Positions 22,735 through 31,814 of a stretch of DNA of 34,922 nt are shown one piece after another (position 1 is the stretch's first letter; each line of letters starts with the position of its first letter). Location of the stretch: positions 19,541-54,462 of the forward strand of contig VBOY01000039.1 of the NCBI GenBank assembly GCA_005893295.1, written 5' to 3'. The position numbers were made by a program, and so were the translations under genes. Under the pieces are notes generated by a model. It saw only the letters and a list, made by a program, of their open reading frames with translations. It had not been told where the DNA came from and made no database searches. The stretch is from Candidatus Eiseniibacteriota bacterium (lineage in GTDB: Bacteria > Eisenbacteria > RBG-16-71-46).

Positions 22735-25700
22735 ATGCTCGAGCGATTCGCGGGCCGATACCTCCTGCTGAGGCGCCTGGGACAGGGCGGGATGGGTGAG
22801 GTCTACCTGGCCCGCGATCTGACGACCGGGGCCGAGTGCGCTCTCAAGCGCCTTGCGGCGCGGAACGTGAGCCCCGATGCCGCGCGCCGCGAATTCGAGA
22901 TCCTGTCGCGCATCCGGCATCCCGCGATCGTCGAGGTGCACGAGCTCGGCCTCGCCGCCGATGGAACCCCCTACATGACGATGGAGTACGTGCCGGGCGT
23001 GGCGGCCGACCGCGCGCTGGCGCGCGGCGACTGGGCGACGCTGCTATTCGTGGCCGCGCGCGTGGCGCAGGGCCTCGAAGCGCTCCACGGGGCAGGCGTG
23101 CTGCACGGCGACCTCAAGCCCTGGAACTTGCTCGTCGTGCCCGGGCCCTCGCCCGACGCGCCGGTGGCCGACGTGAAGCTCGTCGATTTCGGCCTTGCGG
23201 CGCTGCGCGACGCCGCCGGCGAGGGCCGCCGGGGCACGCCGGGCTTCGCCGCACCCGAAACGGTGCGCGGTGAAACGCCTTCGATCGCCTCGGACCTCTA
23301 CGGCTTCGGCGCGACGCTCTACGCGCTGGCCGCGCGCCGTTCGCCCTACGAGGGGGACTCTGCGGTCGAGGTGCTGCGCCGCCAGCAAGCCGGGCCGCCT
23401 TCCGCACTTCCGCTCGAGGAGGTCGGCACGCCCGCTCCGCTCGTCCAGTTCGTGCTGCGGTTGATGGCGCCCGACGCCTCCGAGCGACCGGCGGACGCCC
23501 GCGAAGCGCGGCGCGAGCTCGAGCGCCTGCATCCGGTCTCGCGCCGCCCGCTCGCCGAGCGTCTCGAGACCGCGGTCACGGTGGGACGCGAGCGGGAGCT
23601 GGCGCGCCTCGAGCGATCGCTCGAGCGTGACACGGCGAGGCGGATCATCGTGCTGTCGGGTCCGGCGGGCCTGGGCAAGTCCACGCTGCTGACCGAGCTC
23701 GCGGTGCGCGGGTCGCTCGCGGGCCGGCACGTGCTGCACGCTTCGTGCGCCGCGCATGAGCCGGCGGACATCGCACGCCGGCTGCTCAAGCGTCTCGAGA
23801 CCGAGGCGGGTGAGGCCGTGGCGCCCTCGGCTGCCACCCGTGCCTTGTTCGAGTCGCGGAGCGCCTTCACGACCCTCGACCTCGAGGAGATGGTGGCGGA
23901 CGCGACGCGCTGGGCGGTCGAGGTCGCCGAGCGCGCCGGCCCGCTGCGTGTCCTGCTCGACGACGTGGAGCGACTGGATCCATTTTCGCGCTCGCTCATC
24001 CGCCGCCTGGTGGTCCGAAGGGCCCCGATCCACTGGGTGTGGGCGCGTCGCGACATCATGGGAGCATCCGACGAGCGCATGATGCTCGAGGCCGGGCTCG
24101 CGGAACACGTGGAGCTCTCGCCGCTCGCCGAGGACGGAATTGCGCGACTCGCCGCGGTGCGGCTCGGTGAGCCGGCTCCCGAGGCCCTGGCGTCGTTTCT
24201 GTGGAGTCGAAGCGGCGGGCATCCCGGGTTCGCGGTCGAGCTGCTCCGCGCGGCGGCCGCCGATGGCGTGCTGGTCGAGCAGGATCAGGGCCTGGTCGTG
24301 GCCGCGGACCGGCTCACCTCGCTAAAGATCCCCCGAGATTTCCAGGCTTCGCTGCTCGAACGGGTGGCGGCCTTGCCGGCCGAGGCGCGCGAGGCCGCCG
24401 CCGCGCTCGCGGCGTGGGGCCGGCCGCTCGCGGCCGCGGACCTCAAGGCCCTTGCGCCGCGAGCCGACGAGCGCACGCGGGCGCGATTGATCGCCGCCGG
24501 GCTGGCGGCGCGCGGCGAGGGTGGGACCCTGACGCTGAGACCTCCGGCGCTCGCAGAGGAGCTGCTGCGAATGCTCGCGCCCGACGATCGCCGGGCGCTC
24601 CACCGCGCGGCCCTCGAACGGCCGGGGCTCGACCACGCCGAGCGCTTCCGGCACCTGCGGGAGGCGGGCGACACCTCAGGGGCGCTGGCGGCGGCCGAGT
24701 CGAGCTACGCCGAGCGGCCGAGCTACGAGCTGGCGGCCGCGGCGGCGGAGCTGGCGGAACCGAGCGCCCGCGATCGCGCCGGGCTGTGGCACGACCGCGC
24801 GGCGCGCGAGCTGGCCGCATTGGGCCGCTACGCCGCGGCGATTCCACATCTCGAACGCGCGCTGGCGTTGGAGTCCGACAGTCCCGCGCGACCCGAGCGC
24901 TGGGTACGCCTTTCGGGCGCGTGCCTCAGGGCCGGCCGACTCGACGACACCGAGTCCACCATCGCCCGCGCGCTCGCGGAGGATCCGCCGGCGGCGTTTC
25001 GGGCCAAGCTTCTCTGCAATCAAGCGGCACGCCGCCTCGCGCTCGGCGATCGCGACGCGGCCCGCACGCGAGCCGAGGAATCGCTGGCGCTCGCCGAGGG
25101 CGCGGCGGATTCCGAAGCCATCGGCGCGTCCGCCGAGCTGCTCGCCTACTTGCTGCTCGCCGAGCAGCGCACGGAGGAGGCCGAAGCGATGGCGAGGAGA
25201 GCCGGCGATGCGTACCGGGAAGGGCGTCACGTTCACGGCTCGATCCGCGCCCTCGGGATCAAGGGAGCGATCGCGCGGGCCCGCGGCCGGCTCGCCGAAG
25301 CGGAGCGACATTACCGCGACGGTCTGGCCGAAGCGCGGGCGCGCGCGCATCGCTTGGCCGAAGAAGAGTTGCTGCTGAATCTGGCCGTGGTCCTGGCCGA
25401 ATCGGGCCAGTGGACCGCGTTGCGTGAAACGTTCGAGAAGGCTTCACGCATCGCCCTCGAAGATGGTCGGGCCGGGGGCGCCGCCGTGGCCGTCGCCGGG
25501 CTGTCACACGCCGACGGCCTCACCGGCCGGCCGCGAGCGGCGCGCCGCCAAGGACGCGCCGCAGTGAGGCTCACGCGGAGCCACGTGCCACGGCTCGAGG
25601 CCTACGCCTGGCGCGCCCTCGCCCAGGCCGACCGCATCGCCGGGCGGCTCGATCGCGCGGAACGGGCGGCGCGGCGCGCGGTGACGCTCGCGGCCCGTCA

Positions 25701-27786
25701 GGTGCCGGAGGAGCTGGACTGGAGCCGCATCGAGCTCGGCCGCGCGCTGGCCGCGAGCGCGCGCTGGAACGAGGCGGGCGAGCTGTGGGACGCGGCACGC
25801 GATCGGGCGTCCGACCCGAACGCCGTGGCGACCGCGGTGCTCGAGGTTCTGGCAGGCATGGCCGCACTGCGGCGCGGGCGGCCCGACCGAGCCGCCGCGC
25901 GGCTCAAGACCGCAGAGGAATGGCTCGGCACGCACCCGGCTCCGTACGTCGAGGCGCTCGCCCGGCGACTCGAGGCCGAGCTGGCGTTGAAGGACGGCCG
26001 GCTCGCGGAGGGCCGCGAAACAGGCCACGGTGCCCTCGAGAAGCTGGCGGCTCTTCCGGCGCCGGTCGAACGCGCGCACGCCGCCCTCGAGCTGGCCCGC
26101 CTCGCTCCGGCGAGCCCCGAGCTGGCGCCCGCGGTGGTGTCGTGGCTCGACCTGGCGATCGGGACCTTCGAGCGCGTGGGCGACCGCAGCAGCCGCGAAC
26201 GCGCCCTGGCGCTGCTGGTCGAGTGGCTGCGCCGCCATCCGGTGCGACCTCCGGCTCCCGCGGGCGGCCGCGACCTGATCGAGCGCGTGAGCTGGCTGCT
26301 CCACTCGCTCTCGGATCCGCGCGAGCTCACCCAGCGCGCGATGCGCATGGCGGTGGAGCAGCTCGACGCGGAGCGGGGGGTGCTGCTGCTCATCGACTCC
26401 GAGAGCGGCCTGCTCGCGCCGATCGCCGAGCACGGCGCGGTGGACGCCGCGACCCGCCGTGAGGCGGTGGGCTACAGCCGCCGCGTGGCCCAGCGGGTGA
26501 CCGAAAGCGGAGACAGCCTGCTCATCACCGACGCCCCCGCGGACCCGCGCGTGCTCTCGGAGAGCGTCGTCGACATGCAGTTGCGCTCGATCCTGTGCGT
26601 GCCGATGTTCCTCGGGGGTCACGTGGTGGGCGCGGTCTACCTCGACGACTCGCGGCGCGCCCACACGTTCGGCGACGCCGACCGGGGCCTGCTCGAGGGG
26701 TTCGCGCACCTGATGGCGGTGGCGATCGAGAACAGTCGCGGGCACGACGAAGTGCGGCAGGTGAAGGAGCTGCTGGAGGGCGAGAACCTGTCGCTGCGCC
26801 AGGAAGTAGGGGTGCGCTTTCGCCCGAACAACGTGGTCGGATCGAGCAGCCAGATGCAGCGCGTGCTGGCCATGGTGGAGCACGCTGCCCGCACGCAGAC
26901 CACGGTGCTGATCACCGGGGAGAACGGCACCGGCAAGGAGCTGATCGCCCGCACGCTCCACCACGGCGGCAAGCGACGCTTGCGGCCGTTCGTGGCCGTC
27001 AATTGCGGCGCGATCCCGGAATCCCTGATCGAGAGCGAGCTGTTCGGCATCCTCCCCAACGTGGCCACCGGCGTGCGCGGCCGGCCGGGGCGTTTCGTGC
27101 AGGCCGATGGCGGGACGCTGTTCCTCGATGAGATCGGCGAGATGCCGCTCAAACAGCAGGTGACGCTGCTGTCGGCGATCGCGAACCGCGAGATCACTCC
27201 GGTGGGAGGCGGGAAGCCGATTCCGGTGGACGTTCGGATCATCGCCGCCACGAACCAGAACCTGCGTCGCCAGGTCGAGCAGGGAGCGTTCCGCGAAGAC
27301 CTCTACTATCGGCTCAACGTGATCGAGATCGAGGTGCCGCCGCTGCGCGAGCGAAAGGCGGACATCCCCGGGCTGGCGAAGCACTTTCTGGCCCAGTTCG
27401 CCGCGCAGCAGGAGCGCGACGTCCCCACCATGACGCCGGAGTTCCTTGCCGCCTTGATGCAGAGCGACTGGCCGGGCAACGTGCGCGAGCTACAGAACTA
27501 CATCGAGCGAATCCTGGCGATGACGATGGGCTCGGTGCTCATGCCGGATCCGCCGCCGCGCGACCTTCAGGAGCGCGGGGCGAGGAAGCTGCCGAGGGGG
27601 CGGCGCCTGGTGGATAGCGTGGAGGACCTCGAACGCCGGCTGGTGGGGGAGGCCCTGGAACGGGCCCGTGGCAACCAGAGCCACGCCGCAAAGGAGCTGG
27701 GGCTGACCGAGCAGTCCATGCGCTATCGCATACGGAAATATGGGCTTCACTCTGCTCGCGGAAACCGGCGAACTCGCCGAAGTTAG
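22735..27786 (+). CDS. 1683-aa fusion protein with six modules: non-RD Ser/Thr kinase, STAND/MalT-like NTPase, TPR-like helical repeats, GAF, sigma54-interaction-type AAA+ domain, Fis HTH
   Basis: Kinase: 'LGQGGMGEVY', 'ALKRL', 'HGDLKPWN', 'DFG', 'APE'. STAND Walker A 'GPAGLGKST' and Walker B 'VLLDDVERLD'. GAF region 'LCVPMFLGGHVVGAVYLDD'. AAA+ module: 'ITGENGTGKE', 'GGTLFLDEIGEMP', 'RIIAATNQNL', 'FREDLYYRLNVIEIEVPPLRERKADI'. HTH: 'HAAKELGLTEQSMRYRIRKYGL'. Confidence 0.85.
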   Translation: MLERFAGRYLLLRRLGQGGMGEVYLARDLTTGAECALKRLAARNVSPDAARREFEILSRIRHPAIVEVHELGLAADGTPYMTMEYVPGVAADRALARGDWATLLFVAARVAQGLEALHGAGVLHGDLKPWNLLVVPGPSPDAPVADVKLVDFGLAALRDAAGEGRRGTPGFAAPETVRGETPSIASDLYGFGATLYALAARRSPYEGDSAVEVLRRQQAGPPSALPLEEVGTPAPLVQFVLRLMAPDASERPADAREARRELERLHPVSRRPLAERLETAVTVGRERELARLERSLERDTARRIIVLSGPAGLGKSTLLTELAVRGSLAGRHVLHASCAAHEPADIARRLLKRLETEAGEAVAPSAATRALFESRSAFTTLDLEEMVADATRWAVEVAERAGPLRVLLDDVERLDPFSRSLIRRLVVRRAPIHWVWARRDIMGASDERMMLEAGLAEHVELSPLAEDGIARLAAVRLGEPAPEALASFLWSRSGGHPGFAVELLRAAAADGVLVEQDQGLVVAADRLTSLKIPRDFQASLLERVAALPAEAREAAAALAAWGRPLAAADLKALAPRADERTRARLIAAGLAARGEGGTLTLRPPALAEELLRMLAPDDRRALHRAALERPGLDHAERFRHLREAGDTSGALAAAESSYAERPSYELAAAAAELAEPSARDRAGLWHDRAARELAALGRYAAAIPHLERALALESDSPARPERWVRLSGACLRAGRLDDTESTIARALAEDPPAAFRAKLLCNQAARRLALGDRDAARTRAEESLALAEGAADSEAIGASAELLAYLLLAEQRTEEAEAMARRAGDAYREGRHVHGSIRALGIKGAIARARGRLAEAERHYRDGLAEARARAHRLAEEELLLNLAVVLAESGQWTALRETFEKASRIALEDGRAGGAAVAVAGLSHADGLTGRPRAARRQGRAAVRLTRSHVPRLEAYAWRALAQADRIAGRLDRAERAARRAVTLAARQVPEELDWSRIELGRALAASARWNEAGELWDAARDRASDPNAVATAVLEVLAGMAALRRGRPDRAAARLKTAEEWLGTHPAPYVEALARRLEAELALKDGRLAEGRETGHGALEKLAALPAPVERAHAALELARLAPASPELAPAVVSWLDLAIGTFERVGDRSSRERALALLVEWLRRHPVRPPAPAGGRDLIERVSWLLHSLSDPRELTQRAMRMAVEQLDAERGVLLLIDSESGLLAPIAEHGAVDAATRREAVGYSRRVAQRVTESGDSLLITDAPADPRVLSESVVDMQLRSILCVPMFLGGHVVGAVYLDDSRRAHTFGDADRGLLEGFAHLMAVAIENSRGHDEVRQVKELLEGENLSLRQEVGVRFRPNNVVGSSSQMQRVLAMVEHAARTQTTVLITGENGTGKELIARTLHHGGKRRLRPFVAVNCGAIPESLIESELFGILPNVATGVRGRPGRFVQADGGTLFLDEIGEMPLKQQVTLLSAIANREITPVGGGKPIPVDVRIIAATNQNLRRQVEQGAFREDLYYRLNVIEIEVPPLRERKADIPGLAKHFLAQFAAQQERDVPTMTPEFLAALMQSDWPGNVRELQNYIERILAMTMGSVLMPDPPPRDLQERGARKLPRGRRLVDSVEDLERRLVGEALERARGNQSHAAKELGLTEQSMRYRIRKYGLHSARGNRRTRRS

Positions 27787-27959
27787 CGATTTCACCCGTT
27801 CGCGTTGCGGCGCATTGCGTTATTGATTATTTCGTCGCTATTTGCGCTGTTTTCTGCGAGCCAAGGCCGTTTCCGATGCGCCTCCACTAGCGCGAGAACA
27901 CCCTCTTAACATCATGGTTCACATGTAGTAACTGGCATTCCGCACGAGACATCCCAGAG

Positions 27960-27975
27960 CGGCACGGGTTTCGCG
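27960..27975 (+). promoter_or_regulatory. Candidate sigma54 (-24/-12) promoter, cGGCACG-N4-TCGC, upstream of the small secreted-protein gene
   Basis: GG and GC are spaced exactly as in TGGCACG-N4-TTGC. The -12 element is TCGC, which is non-canonical. It lies about 35 nt upstream of the ATG, in an unusually AT-rich intergenic region. Confidence 0.25.
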
Positions 27976-28008
27976 GTTGGCCGATTGGGTCCAATCAAGG
28001 AGAAACCC

Positions 28009-28290
28009 ATGCAAGGCTCGTACAAGGTCGCTTTCAGCGCTGTGATTCTGGCCACGGCCGTCTTGCTCGTACCCCGTTTGGCCACCGCCCAGATCTGCCC
28101 AAATCCGCCGGTGGGGGTTGGCCAACTCCAAGTGGCGCAAGTGCCCGACGATTGGGCCAGGGCGTCGTGGGTCCGGCGGATCGATTTCAGGTTTTTTTCG
28201 ATGCACGGCTGGGGACGCGGGGCCATTACCCGACTCGGCACCCGCTCGGCCAGCGCCGTCTTGCGTGAGCGGCGCGGACTGACGCGCTGA
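28009..28290 (+). CDS. Small secreted basic protein (93 aa) of unknown function
   Basis: Strong RBS AAGGAG with 6-nt spacing. Signal peptide 'VAFSAVILATAVLLVPRLATAQ'. The mature part is about 65 aa and includes 'ICPNPPVGVG'. Confidence 0.5.
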   Translation: MQGSYKVAFSAVILATAVLLVPRLATAQICPNPPVGVGQLQVAQVPDDWARASWVRRIDFRFFSMHGWGRGAITRLGTRSASAVLRERRGLTR

Positions 28291-28298
28291 ATCCTGCA

Positions 28299-28829
28299 GT
28301 GGGATTTCAGCACGGTCTGCCCCAGCGAGGGGAGCGGGGGGTCGACGGAACGCCCCCCGCGAGACTCGTTCGTCTCCATCGCCATAGCTTGATGAACCTG
28401 CTCGTCACCGGCGGCGTCGCCGACGAGCGACGTCGCGTGGCGCTCGCCTTCCATCACGAAAGCCCACAGCGCCTGGGGCCATTCGTGTCGGTGTGCTGCG
28501 GGCGCGAAGAGGCCCGACTCGCCGCGGGCCTCGAATCGTGGGCGTCGGACAACGAAGCATCCTCGGCCGACCCGTTGCGCGCGGCGCAAGGAGGCACCCT
28601 GTTCCTCGACGAGGTCGGGTGCCTGTCGAGCGACACCCAGCGACTGCTGCTGATCTTCGTTCGCCATCTCGCCGGCGCGGCGGACGATGACGGGCCGCCC
28701 GTCAGGCTGGCGGCCGGCCACGAAGAGGATCTGGACGCGGCGGCCGCCGAGGGAGCGTTCTCTCCACCGCTTCTCGACTATCTCGACAAGATTCACGTCG
28801 AGCTGGGTTCGGTCCGCGGCGCAGCCTGA
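28299..28829 (+). CDS. Stand-alone degenerate sigma54-activator-type AAA+ domain protein ('pseudo-bEBP') with no Walker A lysine, no GAFTGA loop and no HTH
   Basis: 'LLVTGGVADERRRVALAFH' stands where 'LITGESGTGKELVARAIH' would be. The Walker B region 'GGTLFLDEVGCLS' is retained, and 'RLAAGHEEDLDAAAAEGAFSPPLLDYLDKIHVEL' stands where 'RIIAATN..L...V..G.FREDLYYRLNV..I.L' would be. The start codon is uncertain (GTG at 28299 or ATG at 28392). Confidence 0.45.
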   Translation: MGFQHGLPQRGERGVDGTPPARLVRLHRHSLMNLLVTGGVADERRRVALAFHHESPQRLGPFVSVCCGREEARLAAGLESWASDNEASSADPLRAAQGGTLFLDEVGCLSSDTQRLLLIFVRHLAGAADDDGPPVRLAAGHEEDLDAAAAEGAFSPPLLDYLDKIHVELGSVRGAA

Positions 28830-28838
28830 GTCGACCTC

Positions 28839-29393
28839 TCAGCGGACCGCCTTTCGCGCCAGCGCCGGGGCTGCGACGATCTCGTAGAGGGCGAGCGCCA
28901 GACGAGCGCTCTCGCCGATCGCGCGCGCGGTGAGCGTGGCACCGGAAAGAGCGGGGATCGCGCGCCCCGGCCACATCCGGTCGTCGAGCCGCCGGTGGGC
29001 GAAGAGCGACAGCCACCGCGGCTCGGGCGCATAATCGGGCGGCTCGTGGAACGCCAGCACGTCGATCCGCGATACCGTGGTATCGGGTGCAATCGCCACC
29101 ATGAGGACTGCCGGCATGGTGCGCACCACGCGCGCATCGAAGAACGCCGTCCCGGTCAGGCTGTCGCCTCGCCAGGCGAAGTACGCGATCACCAGCCGCG
29201 AGGGAAGCTTCACGCGCGCCCGCTTCTCCACCGTGGCCGCCTCCGCGGCGCCGAGGGCGAACGAGCGGCGCCCGATGCGCGCGCCGGGAAACGCCTGCGC
29301 GAGCGCCTCCTCGCGCGTCATGAAGGCAGCGGCCCGCGCTTCGAGCGGCCAGGACAGCGCGGCCAGGACGAGAGCCAACGCGACTCGAGACAC
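28839..29393 (-). CDS. Secreted FMN_bind-domain protein (predicted substrate for ApbE flavinylation)
   Basis: Signal peptide present. The 'IPALSGATLTARAI' motif matches the NqrC/RnfG FMN_bind 'SGAT(L/I)TS' site, in which the Thr is flavinylated. Confidence 0.55.
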   Translation of the reverse strand: MSRVALALVLAALSWPLEARAAAFMTREEALAQAFPGARIGRRSFALGAAEAATVEKRARVKLPSRLVIAYFAWRGDSLTGTAFFDARVVRTMPAVLMVAIAPDTTVSRIDVLAFHEPPDYAPEPRWLSLFAHRRLDDRMWPGRAIPALSGATLTARAIGESARLALALYEIVAAPALARKAVR

Positions 29394-29396
29394 AGC

Positions 29397-30737
29397 CTAG
29401 AACAGATACCCGAGCGCCACGTTCCACTGATCGGTCGCGGTGTCGGCTTCGTCGTGGCGCCACTGGCGGTCCGTCTTGAGCACCACTTGAGGATGGGGTT
29501 TGAAGGCGACGCCGGCGGTGATCACCGAACGCCGGTTCGCTGGATCCTCGGCGCCACCCGGGACGTCCTCTTGCGTGTCGTACCGCTCGAGCCTCGCGTA
29601 CGGAGCGAGCCCCCATTCGGCGGCGGGGGCTAAGAGGGGCGCGACGTCGTACGCACCCTCGACGTAGCCGCCGAAGAACGATTTGCCGAGTCGGTCCGAG
29701 CCCGTCAAGCCGAGCGCGTCCGAGAGGTCGGAGACGTCGGTGAGCGCGCCGTGCGCGTAGAGCCCTGACAACGTCAACCCCCGCCACTGGAGGCGGGAGT
29801 GGAGGTCGAACAAGGTGAGCCGCGGGGTCACCTCGGCTCCCGCGGGCTGAAAGTCCTGCCAGCTGTCGCCGGTGAATGCTGCGGCACCGGCCGTGAGGCC
29901 GGGAAAGCCGACGTAGTCCAGGCGCGCGGCCACCGCCCCGCGGGTAGCGAGACTCTGCGAACCGTTCTGGCGCCCCTCGCGAATCCCCTGTGAAGCCGAG
30001 AAGCCACGCGCGTTCAGCCCCTCGGTCAGGAAGAGACGGTATTCGAGCCCTCGCCCGCGGCCGTGGATCCCGATGCCGTTTGCGCTCCACGTCGTGGGAA
30101 TGATGACTTGCTCGACGTCGGGGCGCCGGGCGCCGAGGAAGATCGGCGGCTCGTGAAGCTCGTTCACGAGCCCGAGCGGAAGGAGCATCATGCCGGCTCG
30201 AACGCCCACCCCCGGACGCAGCAGCCAGTCGATGTAGGCGAACTCGAGCGAGACCTCCCCCGAGAGCTCCGCCGAACCTTGGACCTCGCCGGTCAAGGGA
30301 TCCGCCCGGCCCTCGACCAAGGCTTCGTCGCGCACCCCGCCGTGCTCCAGCTCGATCTCGGAGTTGAACAACAGCCGGTCGGTGAACTTGTAGCCCAGGT
30401 ACACCACCTGCCGCAGATGATCGAGGCGGTCGAGCTTACCCGAAGGGACGTCGTCTTCGCGGGAGCGATCGAAGTTCTCGTAGAGCGCCTCGCCGTAGCC
30501 TCCGATCGAGACCCCGGGCCCGGCTCCGTACACCTTGGAGGCTGCGGGCGCGAGCCCGAAGCGGCCGGCGGTCCGCGCGCGCGCGGTCGTGTCCGCCACG
30601 GCGCCCAATTGGATGTTCTCGATCTCCGCGGTGAGCGCCTCCACTTTGCGCTCCAATTCGCCGATCCGCTCGTCGTCGGCGAATGCCGGCCCGGCGAAGC
30701 CCAAGACCAACAGCAGGGAAACAAGCGCCATCTTCAC
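29397..30737 (-). CDS. Outer-membrane porin-like beta-barrel with an N-terminal coiled-coil
   Basis: Signal peptide 'ALVSLLLVLGFAGPAFA'. Coiled-coil 'ERIGELERKVEALTAEIENIQ'. Alternating beta pattern ending in 'NVALGYLF', with a C-terminal Phe. Confidence 0.55.
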   Translation of the reverse strand: MKMALVSLLLVLGFAGPAFADDERIGELERKVEALTAEIENIQLGAVADTTARARTAGRFGLAPAASKVYGAGPGVSIGGYGEALYENFDRSREDDVPSGKLDRLDHLRQVVYLGYKFTDRLLFNSEIELEHGGVRDEALVEGRADPLTGEVQGSAELSGEVSLEFAYIDWLLRPGVGVRAGMMLLPLGLVNELHEPPIFLGARRPDVEQVIIPTTWSANGIGIHGRGRGLEYRLFLTEGLNARGFSASQGIREGRQNGSQSLATRGAVAARLDYVGFPGLTAGAAAFTGDSWQDFQPAGAEVTPRLTLFDLHSRLQWRGLTLSGLYAHGALTDVSDLSDALGLTGSDRLGKSFFGGYVEGAYDVAPLLAPAAEWGLAPYARLERYDTQEDVPGGAEDPANRRSVITAGVAFKPHPQVVLKTDRQWRHDEADTATDQWNVALGYLF

Positions 30738-30758
30738 GATGCATCCTTTCCTTCGAGG

Positions 30759-31814
30759 TCAGTTCATCCAGCGGATCGCGACTCCGGGCTCGGCGATCGC
30801 GGAGAGATTCCATTTCCAGGCGCGCAGAAGACCATGATCGGGCTCGATCCACAACACGCCGATCTCCTGGTGGCGCCGCGCCAGGGCCAAGGCACGCTCG
30901 CGGCCCATCACCAGCAGCGCCGTCGACAGGCCATCGGCGCGCGTGGCCGAGGGAGCGACCACGGTGACGGTTGCTTGGGTGTCGAGCGGCCGGCCGCTCG
31001 AAGGGTCGAGGATGTGCCCCAAGTGCTTGCCCCGGACCGTGACCCCGCGCACTCCCTGGCCGGAGGTCGAGACCGCTCCTTGGGCGATCGCAATCCGTAC
31101 GGCCGGCCGCAGGCGGTCGTTGGGATGAGCCACCGCGATCGGCCACGGCCGGCCCTTGGGCGAGAGAGCGAGCACCTCGCCTCCCAGGTTGAGCAGCGCA
31201 CGCTCGATGCCCTCGGCCGCCAGCAGTCGTGCGGCCCGATCGAGGGCGAACCCCTTGCCGATCCCGCCCAAGTCCACCCCCATTCCAGGCGTGGCGAGCC
31301 GCGCCATGTGGCGCGTGGGGTCGAGCGTGAGGCGGGACCAGGCCACGCGGGAGCGCGCCACGGCGATCTCCCGCGGCGAGGGCACGCGGCCCTTGCCGCG
31401 CAGGTCCCAGATGCGGTCGAGCGGCTCCACCGTCGGATCGAACGCGCCCGAGGTGGCGCGCGCGATCGCGAGCGCCGAGTCGAGAACAGCGTAGAGATCC
31501 TGAGAACAACGGAAGGCACTGCCGGCCGCCCGATTGAGGCGTGACAGCTCGCTGTCCTTGCGCCACGAGCTCATCACGTTTTCGAGCCGAGCGATCTCGT
31601 CGAGCGAGTGGGCGAGGACCCGGGCCGCCTGGGTCGAGTCGGGGGCTTCGGCCGTGGCGGTCAAGATCGTGCCCATCAGATAGCGCGCCCGCTCGACGCC
31701 AACGGGTCGGGCGGCCTCGCGCACCGCGCACCCGCCCGCAAGCAGGGAAGCGAGGGCCCACAGGGCGCGGATGCCGCCGCGTCGCCCCTGCTCAGCGGGG
31801 CGGCTTTGGGACAT
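30759..31814 (-). CDS. apbE: ApbE-family FAD:protein FMN transferase (lipoprotein)
   Basis: Lipobox 'LLAGGCA'. ApbE motifs 'YLMGT' and 'DLGGIGKGFALD' are present. Confidence 0.85.
   Translation of the reverse strand: MSQSRPAEQGRRGGIRALWALASLLAGGCAVREAARPVGVERARYLMGTILTATAEAPDSTQAARVLAHSLDEIARLENVMSSWRKDSELSRLNRAAGSAFRCSQDLYAVLDSALAIARATSGAFDPTVEPLDRIWDLRGKGRVPSPREIAVARSRVAWSRLTLDPTRHMARLATPGMGVDLGGIGKGFALDRAARLLAAEGIERALLNLGGEVLALSPKGRPWPIAVAHPNDRLRPAVRIAIAQGAVSTSGQGVRGVTVRGKHLGHILDPSSGRPLDTQATVTVVAPSATRADGLSTALLVMGRERALALARRHQEIGVLWIEPDHGLLRAWKWNLSAIAEPGVAIRWMN

Follow-up and report, generated by a model that had tools for sequence, protein, structure and literature searches.

The stretch of DNA analyzed here, in the following called the window, comprises 34,922 nucleotides (nt) from a metagenome-assembled genome of Candidatus Eisenbacteria. 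Judged by sequence comparison, the gene at positions 28299 to 28829 of its forward strand is a conserved, selected, non-catalytic relic of the AAA+ alpha/beta subdomain of sigma54 activators, the bacterial enhancer-binding proteins (bEBPs). Its product of 176 amino acids (aa), here termed pseudo-bEBP, consists of this catalytically degenerate subdomain only and is an uncharacterized pseudo-enzyme branch of the bEBP AAA+ family, encoded in an undescribed three-gene module together with a giant kinase-fused regulator and a small secreted protein. The anatomy of this module is solid; the function of the pseudo-bEBP is one that we infer. The literature searched (full text, from a limited library) contained no account of such a protein or of the giant's architecture.

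A Degenerate AAA+ Subdomain

In a Pfam search, the pseudo-bEBP matched PF00158 (Sigma54_activat) with 39.9 bits (E = 4.4e-10), the gathering cut-off of this family being 20.2 bits. This agrees with the first-pass annotation of the window, which had described the product as a stand-alone, catalytically degenerate AAA+ domain of the sigma54-activator type and had proposed a profile search as a check. The match connects residues 29-167 with positions 20-167 of the 168 profile positions, and Sigma54_activat and Sigma54_activ_2 were the only Pfam families matched. Neither AAA_lid_14 (PF25601) nor HTH_8 nor any sensor domain was found in this search, as had been stated for the sensor and helix-turn-helix (HTH) domains before, although the missing HTH_8 alone is not decisive, as some genuine bEBPs also lack it. 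A phmmer search against the PDB returned the AAA+ domains of FleQ, NtrC-type proteins, VpsR, and PspF at E-values from 3e-8 to 1e-5, with identities to the solved FleQ, NtrC-type (NtrC1), VpsR, and PspF domains of 28-32%. The AlphaFold2 (AF2) model (predicted local distance difference test, pLDDT, 72.6; predicted template modeling score, pTM, 0.70) contains a five-strand AAA+ core, and a structure search with this model retrieved FleQ, NtrC-type, VpsR, and PspF structures again.

Alignments with bEBPs revealed the loss of one motif after the other. The Walker A motif, GESGTGKE in bEBPs, reads GGVADERR in the pseudo-bEBP (28410-28433, forward strand), with an arginine (Arg44) in place of the P-loop lysine and a glutamate in place of the preceding glycine; the heptapeptide GGVADER, in which the missing lysine had been spotted at the first reading, corresponds to residues 38-44. 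The GAFTGA (L1) segment, likewise recognized as absent earlier, is replaced by a shorter, unrelated stretch, LESWASDNEASSADPLRAAQ, between the 'ELFG' equivalent and Walker B, and AF2 predicts a continuous helix (residues 67-82) and not a hairpin insertion for this region. The Walker B strand GGTLFLDEVG occupies residues 98-107 (28590-28619, forward strand) and includes, within TLFLDE (residues 100-105), the catalytic glutamate of the window protein. Further downstream, the loop preceding sensor I is shortened, sensor I itself (AAT, as part of AAT[NT] in bEBPs) has turned into AAG, and the arginine-finger motif FRxDLYYRL has turned into FSPPLLDYL, with both finger arginines gone. The former sensor I and arginine-finger region extends over 28719-28799 of the forward strand (HEEDL...GAFSPPLLDYLDKIHV) and is the site of the newly conserved residues D160, D163, and K164; the altered sequence HEEDLDAAAAEGAFSPPLLDYLDKIHV, to which attention had been drawn before, was located in it at residues 141-167. 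Since the chain stops nine residues beyond the last core strand, the lid and with it sensor II are absent. The earlier statement that the protein aligns along the whole central domain of bEBPs consequently holds for the alpha/beta subdomain and has to be corrected for the lid. As far as its motifs tell, the pseudo-bEBP cannot be a sigma54 activator.

Conservation and Selection

Eleven close homologs with 48-98% identity and lengths of 128-188 aa were found, all of which carry PF00158 and from which ordinary bEBPs are clearly separated (E > 1e-7). A family profile search against 1.84 billion cluster representatives yielded 97 matches at E <= 1e-30, and approximately 130 of the best 150 matches were short stand-alone proteins of 85-263 aa. 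More than 100 clusters (50% identity) contain an intact, short, stand-alone open reading frame (ORF) of the same length. The long matches (P0076, P0144, and others) were considered as function-revealing fusions and rejected; they turned out to be ordinary bEBPs in tandem or chimeric form, ranked too high by the summing of their scores. Pairwise ratios of non-synonymous to synonymous substitution rates (dN/dS) of the pseudo-bEBP amount to 0.12-0.25, which corresponds to purifying selection.

An alignment of 128 family members was used to follow individual residues. Arginine occupies the P-loop lysine position in 127 of them, preceded by glutamate, glutamine, arginine, or aspartate where bEBPs have glycine. 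The Walker B aspartate is conserved (aspartate in 112, glutamate in 11), while the catalytic glutamate is found in only 19 members, so that about 85% of the family do without it. Therefore, the earlier emphasis on a retained Walker B is correct for the window protein and misleading as a feature of the family. The sensor I position (G140) is glycine in 119 members and both arginine-finger positions are non-basic. Newly conserved are D160, D163, and K164 (118-123 members each) as well as R166 (111 members). The best-conserved parts are the core AAA+ sheet and the face of the former nucleotide site (Arg44, the GGTLFLD strand, and RLAAG). By every standard criterion that can be applied to these motifs, the whole family is catalytically dead. 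Conserved as well is the C-terminal tail RGAA-COOH (28815-28826, forward strand), present in 17 of 23 aligned members and, as seen in the family logo, at the end of most members; it might serve for docking or, through its Ala-Ala, as an ssrA-like degron.

Searches for known relatives outside this family gave no assignment. NCBIfam contained no equivalog for the pseudo-bEBP (NtrC, PspF, DhaR, RtcR, and others; best score 45 bits at cut-offs of 440-760), and PADLOC did not assign it to any defense protein, its weak partial matches to RtcR-type AAA+ domains reflecting generic bEBP homology. A scan of genome contigs with the whole-family alignment, for which the Walker B word served as pattern, returned ordinary bEBPs of at most 37% identity and no true member; a metagenome scan with an alignment of the N-terminal part only recovered family members.

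Start Codon and Gene Composition

The ORF of the pseudo-bEBP starts with GTG at 28299 and extends to the TGA stop ending at 28829. In GenBank, the same gene is annotated as TMQ67455.1 ("hypothetical protein"), which was called from an internal ATG, comprises 145 aa, and is 31 codons too short. At the homologous position, the relatives at loci L090 and L107 read ATG-GGA-TTC ('MGF') where the window has GTG-GGA-TTT, and because of this match of the starts the reading of 176 aa is favored over the annotated one. The N-terminal segment PPAxLLRLHRHSL, which lies 5' of the GenBank ATG, is conserved across the family. The G+C contents at the three codon positions (0.79/0.50/0.79) follow the pattern of a coding frame; the third-position value (GC3) of 0.79 is lower than the 0.86-0.90 of the neighboring genes. 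At a G+C content of 69.7% for the whole window, the segment 27787-28830, which covers intergenic DNA, the small ORF, and the pseudo-bEBP, has lower values of G+C and GC3 (0.53 and 0.75-0.79) than the genes on either side with their GC3 of 0.86-0.90. An antisense ORF of 294 aa (27912-28796) was ruled out as a gene, as it is not conserved and contains stops in L001.

The Giant Regulator and the Gene Order

Upstream of the pseudo-bEBP, at 22735-27786 of the forward strand, lies the gene of the giant regulator (1,683 aa; GenBank TMQ67454.1) with the Pfam domains Pkinase, AAA_16 (STAND), TPR, GAF, Sigma54_activat, AAA_lid_14, and HTH_8. The same architecture, at approximately 1,680 aa, was found beside family members in L001, L102, L107, L109, and L111. 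In the giant of the window, Walker A (GENGTGKE), Walker B, and the arginine fingers (FREDLYYRL) are intact, and the same applies to the ATPase motifs and arginine fingers of 11 of 11 partner giants examined, which implies that there is an active ring to regulate. The L1 loop of the giant's AAA+ domain is a variant: at residues 1435-1447 (27037-27075, forward strand) it reads ELFGILPNVATGV in place of ELFGHEKGAFTGA. This variant, ELFGIL[PRS][NS]VAT[GDQ]V, with NVATGV instead of GAFTGA, is common to all 11 partner giants. The AAA+ domain of the neighboring giant shares 31% identity with the pseudo-bEBP (BLAST). An origin of the pseudo-bEBP by recent duplication of this domain is unsupported at this identity, and the family hidden Markov model (HMM) fits partner giants no better than generic bEBPs.

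Gene order was assessed wherever the flanking DNA was long enough. The giant is followed by the small ORF and this by the pseudo-bEBP in the window, L001-L004, L090, L099, L102, L107, and L109, an order that thereby extends to members at 45-50% identity and to the member at L109, which ranks close to the end of the hit list. A variant module was observed at L111 (8001-9981), where the small ORF and a pseudo-bEBP of 209 aa are followed by an ordinary response-regulator bEBP of 448 aa; here, the giant is encoded convergently just downstream and thus remains a neighbor in spite of the rearranged order. The first-pass annotation had linked the pseudo-bEBP to the giant next to it and had proposed to look for such pairs in related genomes. 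Such pairs recur in the loci named in addition to the window, a giant being adjacent wherever the flanks are long enough, and the giant with its AAA+ domain is the sole invariant neighbor of the pseudo-bEBP.

The genes that follow the pseudo-bEBP depend on the clade and are a PAS-histidine kinase, an ORF of 130 aa, or, as in the window, none on the same strand. A 310-aa protein with PAS and HATPase_c domains is encoded in start/stop overlap with the pseudo-bEBP at L001 (10537-11469), L003 (2667-3599), and L099 (2221-3153); it is like histidine kinases (CckA, AtoS), without a HisKA match in Pfam. In the window, a convergent cluster on the reverse strand (28839-31814) encodes an FMN_bind-domain protein, a 446-aa protein without a Pfam match, and ApbE (FAD:protein FMN transferase). 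It is syntenic in L107 and not in other family loci, and since its synteny is limited in this way, the cluster is regarded as lying outside the module.

The Small Secreted Protein

Between giant and pseudo-bEBP, the forward strand encodes a small protein of 93 aa (28009-28290) that is not annotated in GenBank, as can be seen from the consecutive accessions TMQ67454 and TMQ67455 of its neighbors. Its stop codon (28288-28290) is separated by 8 nt from the GTG of the pseudo-bEBP; the ORF boundaries thus agree with the spacing given earlier. Across the loci, the two ORFs overlap or are separated by a few to about 25 nt. A Sec-type signal peptide is predicted for aa 1-27, with one lysine, a hydrophobic core of 15 residues, and cleavage at ATA|Q, leaving a mature protein with the N-terminus Q-I-C-P-N-P-P-V-G-V-G and a basic C-terminus. 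An equivalent ORF of 75-119 aa is present at every locus, and these proteins share an invariant Ala-Gln at the predicted A-x-A|Q site followed by P-x-P-x-G-G(T). Outside the shared motifs they diverge rapidly (dN/dS 0.3-0.66), and their C-terminus is basic. The small protein matched no family in Pfam or NCBIfam, PADLOC likewise did not assign it, and a profile search identified only 12 unnamed database relatives. A strong Shine-Dalgarno sequence, AAGGAGA, can be read at 27997-28003 of the forward strand ahead of the small ORF, and the equivalent sites in other loci are AGGAGG or AAGGAGA.

A Predicted Sigma54 Promoter

A -24/-12 promoter element, CGGCACGGGTTTCGCG, is located at 27960-27975 of the forward strand (GG at 27961-2, GC at 27973-4), at a position that is conserved across loci. 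The element GG[CT]A[CT]-N5-[TC]N-GC was found in 20 of 20 loci, 48-80 nt 5' of the start of the small ORF, compared with a mean of 0.37 and a maximum of 4 of 20 in shuffled controls; its background rate is 3.1% per 115-nt segment. The GG-to-GC spacing is canonical and the flanking sequence is not conserved. Within the window alone the match is not significant, and the strength of the prediction derives from the conserved position across loci. The operon of small ORF and pseudo-bEBP is therefore very probably sigma54-dependent, with the adjacent giant as the obvious candidate for its activator. Since the element precedes this operon in all 20 loci, the giant may plausibly act on it, and feedback would be the natural reading.

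The intergenic region between giant and promoter (27787-27959, forward strand; G+C content about 0.53) is a candidate enhancer region (upstream activating sequence, UAS). It was compared among seven loci by eye. In this comparison, no conserved inverted-repeat enhancer was found between giant and promoter. The word CATTGCG or a near variant of it recurs 100-150 nt 5' of the promoter in the window, L001, L090, and L107, and may be an enhancer half-site.

RNA Hairpins Within the Operon

A GC-rich RNA hairpin, GCGGGGGG-N-loop-CCCCCCGC, is formed by positions 28334-28360 of the forward strand, which correspond to codons 12-21 of the pseudo-bEBP and encode the 'RG....PPA' columns of the family alignment. 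Among 19 loci, 90% of cells were paired, compared with 47-62% in slid controls, and double changes were observed at 6 of 11 pairs, a count that none of 500 shuffles reached. In L005, for example, where a Gly codon has turned into a Glu codon, a synonymous change in a proline codon compensates for this, and in distant members a hairpin of different sequence exists at the same place. The local fold has a z-score of -2.3. The possibility that the hairpin is an intrinsic terminator was rejected, as a simple terminator scan did not call it and the window has no T-run there.

Folding of the RNA from 28280 to 28385 additionally predicted a small stem-loop, AAUCC...GGAUU (28290-28306, forward strand), which spans the stop of the small ORF and the GTG of the pseudo-bEBP and is likely a translational-coupling element; the L001 clade has an analogous hairpin around the start codon. 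Together, these RNA features suggest translational coupling and an attenuator or stabilizer that sets the ratio of the two products.

Possible Functions of the Pseudo-bEBP

We tentatively propose, with a confidence slightly short of even, that the pseudo-bEBP feeds back on the giant as a docked, dead, and lid-less subunit that would cap or poison its oligomers. In essence, this follows the suggestion of the first-pass annotation that the pseudo-bEBP could co-assemble into the ring of the giant and modulate it, for example by poisoning or templating, and the genomic context fits such a role. According to this proposal, the giant would switch on the -24/-12 promoter of the small-ORF/pseudo-bEBP operon, and the pseudo-bEBP would then dock on the AAA+ module of the giant; in clades whose loci encode an additional bEBP, it might dock on that protein instead. 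Once docked, it would offer Asp/Lys to the neighboring subunit in the place of an arginine finger. Lacking a lid, it would be unable to propagate the ring, and the capped or poisoned oligomers would limit ATPase-driven open-complex formation. Translational coupling and the hairpin in the first codons could set the dose of the pseudo-bEBP relative to the secreted protein, and the conserved C-terminal Ala-Ala possibly makes it short-lived, so that the net output of the giant would be self-limiting in the form of a pulse or a threshold. It is established for PspF, NtrC1, and other AAA+ proteins that subunits defective in Walker motifs or arginine fingers poison mixed rings. Moreover, HrpR/HrpS (PMC3105312) and RedR1/RedR2 (PMC10084136) demonstrate that bEBPs are able to hetero-oligomerize.

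Several observations weigh against this proposal. The L1 loop of the giants lacks the phenylalanine of GAFTGA, which leaves the promoter to carry the case for their sigma54 dependence by itself. The family HMM scores partner giants at approximately 82 bits and unrelated bEBPs at up to 89 bits, and as the giants score no higher than the latter, there is no sign of partner-specific similarity. The pseudo-bEBP also lacks the lid, which normally contributes to AAA+ protomer contacts and is part of the usual protomer-protomer interface, and all loci are metagenomic.

The missing lid, by speaking against normal ring contacts, would be more easily reconciled with an adaptor or decoy of this pathway that is not itself part of the ring, a possibility that we consider real if somewhat unlikely. 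The TPR, GAF, or kinase domains of the giant, sigma54, or clade-specific co-operonic partners such as the PAS-histidine kinase of the L001 clade and the response-regulator bEBP of L111 are candidate targets, and the pseudo-bEBP might be phosphorylated by the kinase or act through its C-terminal RGAA peptide. Binding to C-terminal peptides is common among TPR domains, family-specific conservation is found outside the classical AAA+ motifs (PPAxLLRLHRHSL, D160/D163/K164, and RGAA), and the downstream partners differ between clades, all of which would fit an adaptor. However, it is the AAA+ core sheet and the face of the former nucleotide site that are conserved most, as predicted for contact with a neighboring AAA+ domain, and the only invariant neighbor is a giant that has such a domain. 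The conserved face might alternatively reflect a pocket that is still in use, with the pseudo-bEBP as a non-hydrolyzing sensor that binds a nucleotide or second messenger and relays its state to a regulator. The AAA+ domains of FleQ and VpsR are known to bind c-di-GMP and are the top matches in both sequence and structure, and the arginine in the former P-loop (127 of 128) together with the conserved Walker B aspartate hints at such a pocket. Nevertheless, FleQ and VpsR rank above other bEBPs only marginally, and the c-di-GMP site of FleQ lies partly in the lid, which the pseudo-bEBP does not have. With the glycine of 'GK' replaced by glutamate, glutamine, arginine, or aspartate and with sensor I, sensor II, and lid absent, canonical nucleotide binding is unlikely, and overall we regard a sensor role as improbable.

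Very improbable appears a role in the service of the small secreted protein, be it as cytoplasmic chaperone, export-timing factor, or immunity factor. The small ORF adjoins the pseudo-bEBP at every locus and the stem-loops at the junction of the two genes point to translational coupling, yet the small protein evolves fast (dN/dS 0.3-0.66) next to a well-conserved pseudo-bEBP, which is a poor fit to a tightly co-evolving pair. Furthermore, the small protein carries an ordinary Sec signal peptide, and we know of no precedent for a bEBP-derived AAA+ fold in a chaperone, export, or immunity role. Finally, the loss of every catalytic motif, a GC3 below that of the neighbors (0.79 versus 0.86-0.90), and the annotation as "hypothetical protein" could be taken as signs of a decaying pseudogene, the remnant of a duplicated bEBP, or of a gene-calling artifact. 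To this reading we give hardly any credence, and it was rejected on conservation, dN/dS, and synteny. The concern, raised with the first-pass annotation, that the frame might be an unconserved artifact is answered, at the level of sequence evidence, by more than 100 clusters (50% identity) that have an intact ORF of the same length, by dN/dS values of 0.12-0.25, and by the conserved start and N-terminus; new conserved residues (Arg44, D160, D163, and K164), a conserved C-terminus, and conserved synteny and promoter likewise argue against decay.

Comparison With Known Systems

The pseudo-bEBP shares with bEBPs such as NtrC, PspF, FleQ, NorR, and NifA (PF00158) the homologous AAA+ alpha/beta subdomain, including the five-strand core in the AF2 model, and its gene lies next to that of a genuine bEBP and follows a predicted sigma54 promoter. 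Unlike these proteins, it has no P-loop lysine, GAFTGA/L1, sensor I, arginine fingers, lid with sensor II, regulatory domain, or HTH, its pre-sensor-I loop is shortened, and the family as a whole lacks the catalytic glutamate. Within the bEBP AAA+ lineage, the sigma54-contacting loop is also absent from TyrR, PhhR, Rhodobacter NtrC, HupR, and VpsR, the last of which is among the best structural matches of the pseudo-bEBP. These proteins work without sigma54 and are full-length DNA-binding regulators with a complete AAA+ domain including the lid and a nucleotide site that is usually functional, whereas the pseudo-bEBP is a bare alpha/beta subdomain.

AAA+ paralogs that lack the motifs of the nucleotide site and have a structural role in an AAA+ oligomer are represented by the clamp-loader subunits delta and delta', which retain their lids and collars and are obligate components in fixed stoichiometry. 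In this comparison, which is drawn from general background, the loss of the nucleotide-site motifs is shared, a structural role is proposed only for the pseudo-bEBP, and the lid that is kept in the clamp loader is missing here. Co-dependent or interacting bEBPs have been described for HrpR/HrpS of Pseudomonas syringae (PMC3105312), RedR1/RedR2 (PMC10084136), and NifA/VnfA/AnfA (PMC9542535). These pairs, encoded by adjacent genes, are a precedent for paralogous AAA+ hetero-oligomers that tune the output; in contrast to the module described here, in which one partner is a truncated pseudo-ATPase, both partners are complete, ATPase-competent, and DNA-binding.

Control of a bEBP by a separate protein is also exemplified by HrpV, the anti-activator of HrpS. 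Further anti-activators acting in trans are PspA for PspF (PMC3791423), FleN for FleQ (PMC8528422), and NifL for NifA (PMC12998190). The logic proposed for the pseudo-bEBP would resemble that of these four, in which a separate and often co-regulated protein binds the AAA+ domain of the activator and restrains its ATPase or assembly, which results in feedback. In their origin they differ: PspA is ESCRT-III-like, FleN belongs to the MinD-type ATPases, NifL is of the PAS/GHKL type, HrpV is a small regulator of type III secretion, and the bEBP AAA+ fold is the source of none of them. Conversely, no Pfam domain of the PspA, FleN, NifL, or HrpV families was found in the pseudo-bEBP.

Significance

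Both AAA+ mechanochemistry and signal-controlled transcription have a textbook model in the bEBPs, and to our knowledge all known trans-acting regulators of their ATPase rings stem from unrelated folds. Besides the pseudo-bEBP, the module defines a family of small secreted proteins that lacks annotation, a clade of giant activators fused to a kinase, which lie beside predicted sigma54 promoters in spite of their non-GAFTGA loop, and an intra-operon RNA hairpin with covariation. As its parts are short and can be synthesized, the proposed feedback would be testable in vitro, although Candidatus Eisenbacteria and their relatives are uncultivated. One might go further and view the giant as a cytoplasmic protein with the non-canonical NVATGV loop, the secreted protein as a peptide signal or effector, and a ring-capping, short-lived pseudo-AAA+ protein as a self-contained sigma54 circuit of uncultivated soil and sediment bacteria that serves as a timer for peptide release. 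We consider this extended reading clearly unlikely; if it were true, the pseudo-bEBP would be a bEBP anti-activator made from the bEBP fold, the first of its kind. Should the feedback on the giant prove true, it would constitute a new principle of sigma54 regulation, control by a dead paralogous subunit, and the pseudo-bEBP would be a natural probe of the number of active subunits needed per bEBP ring.

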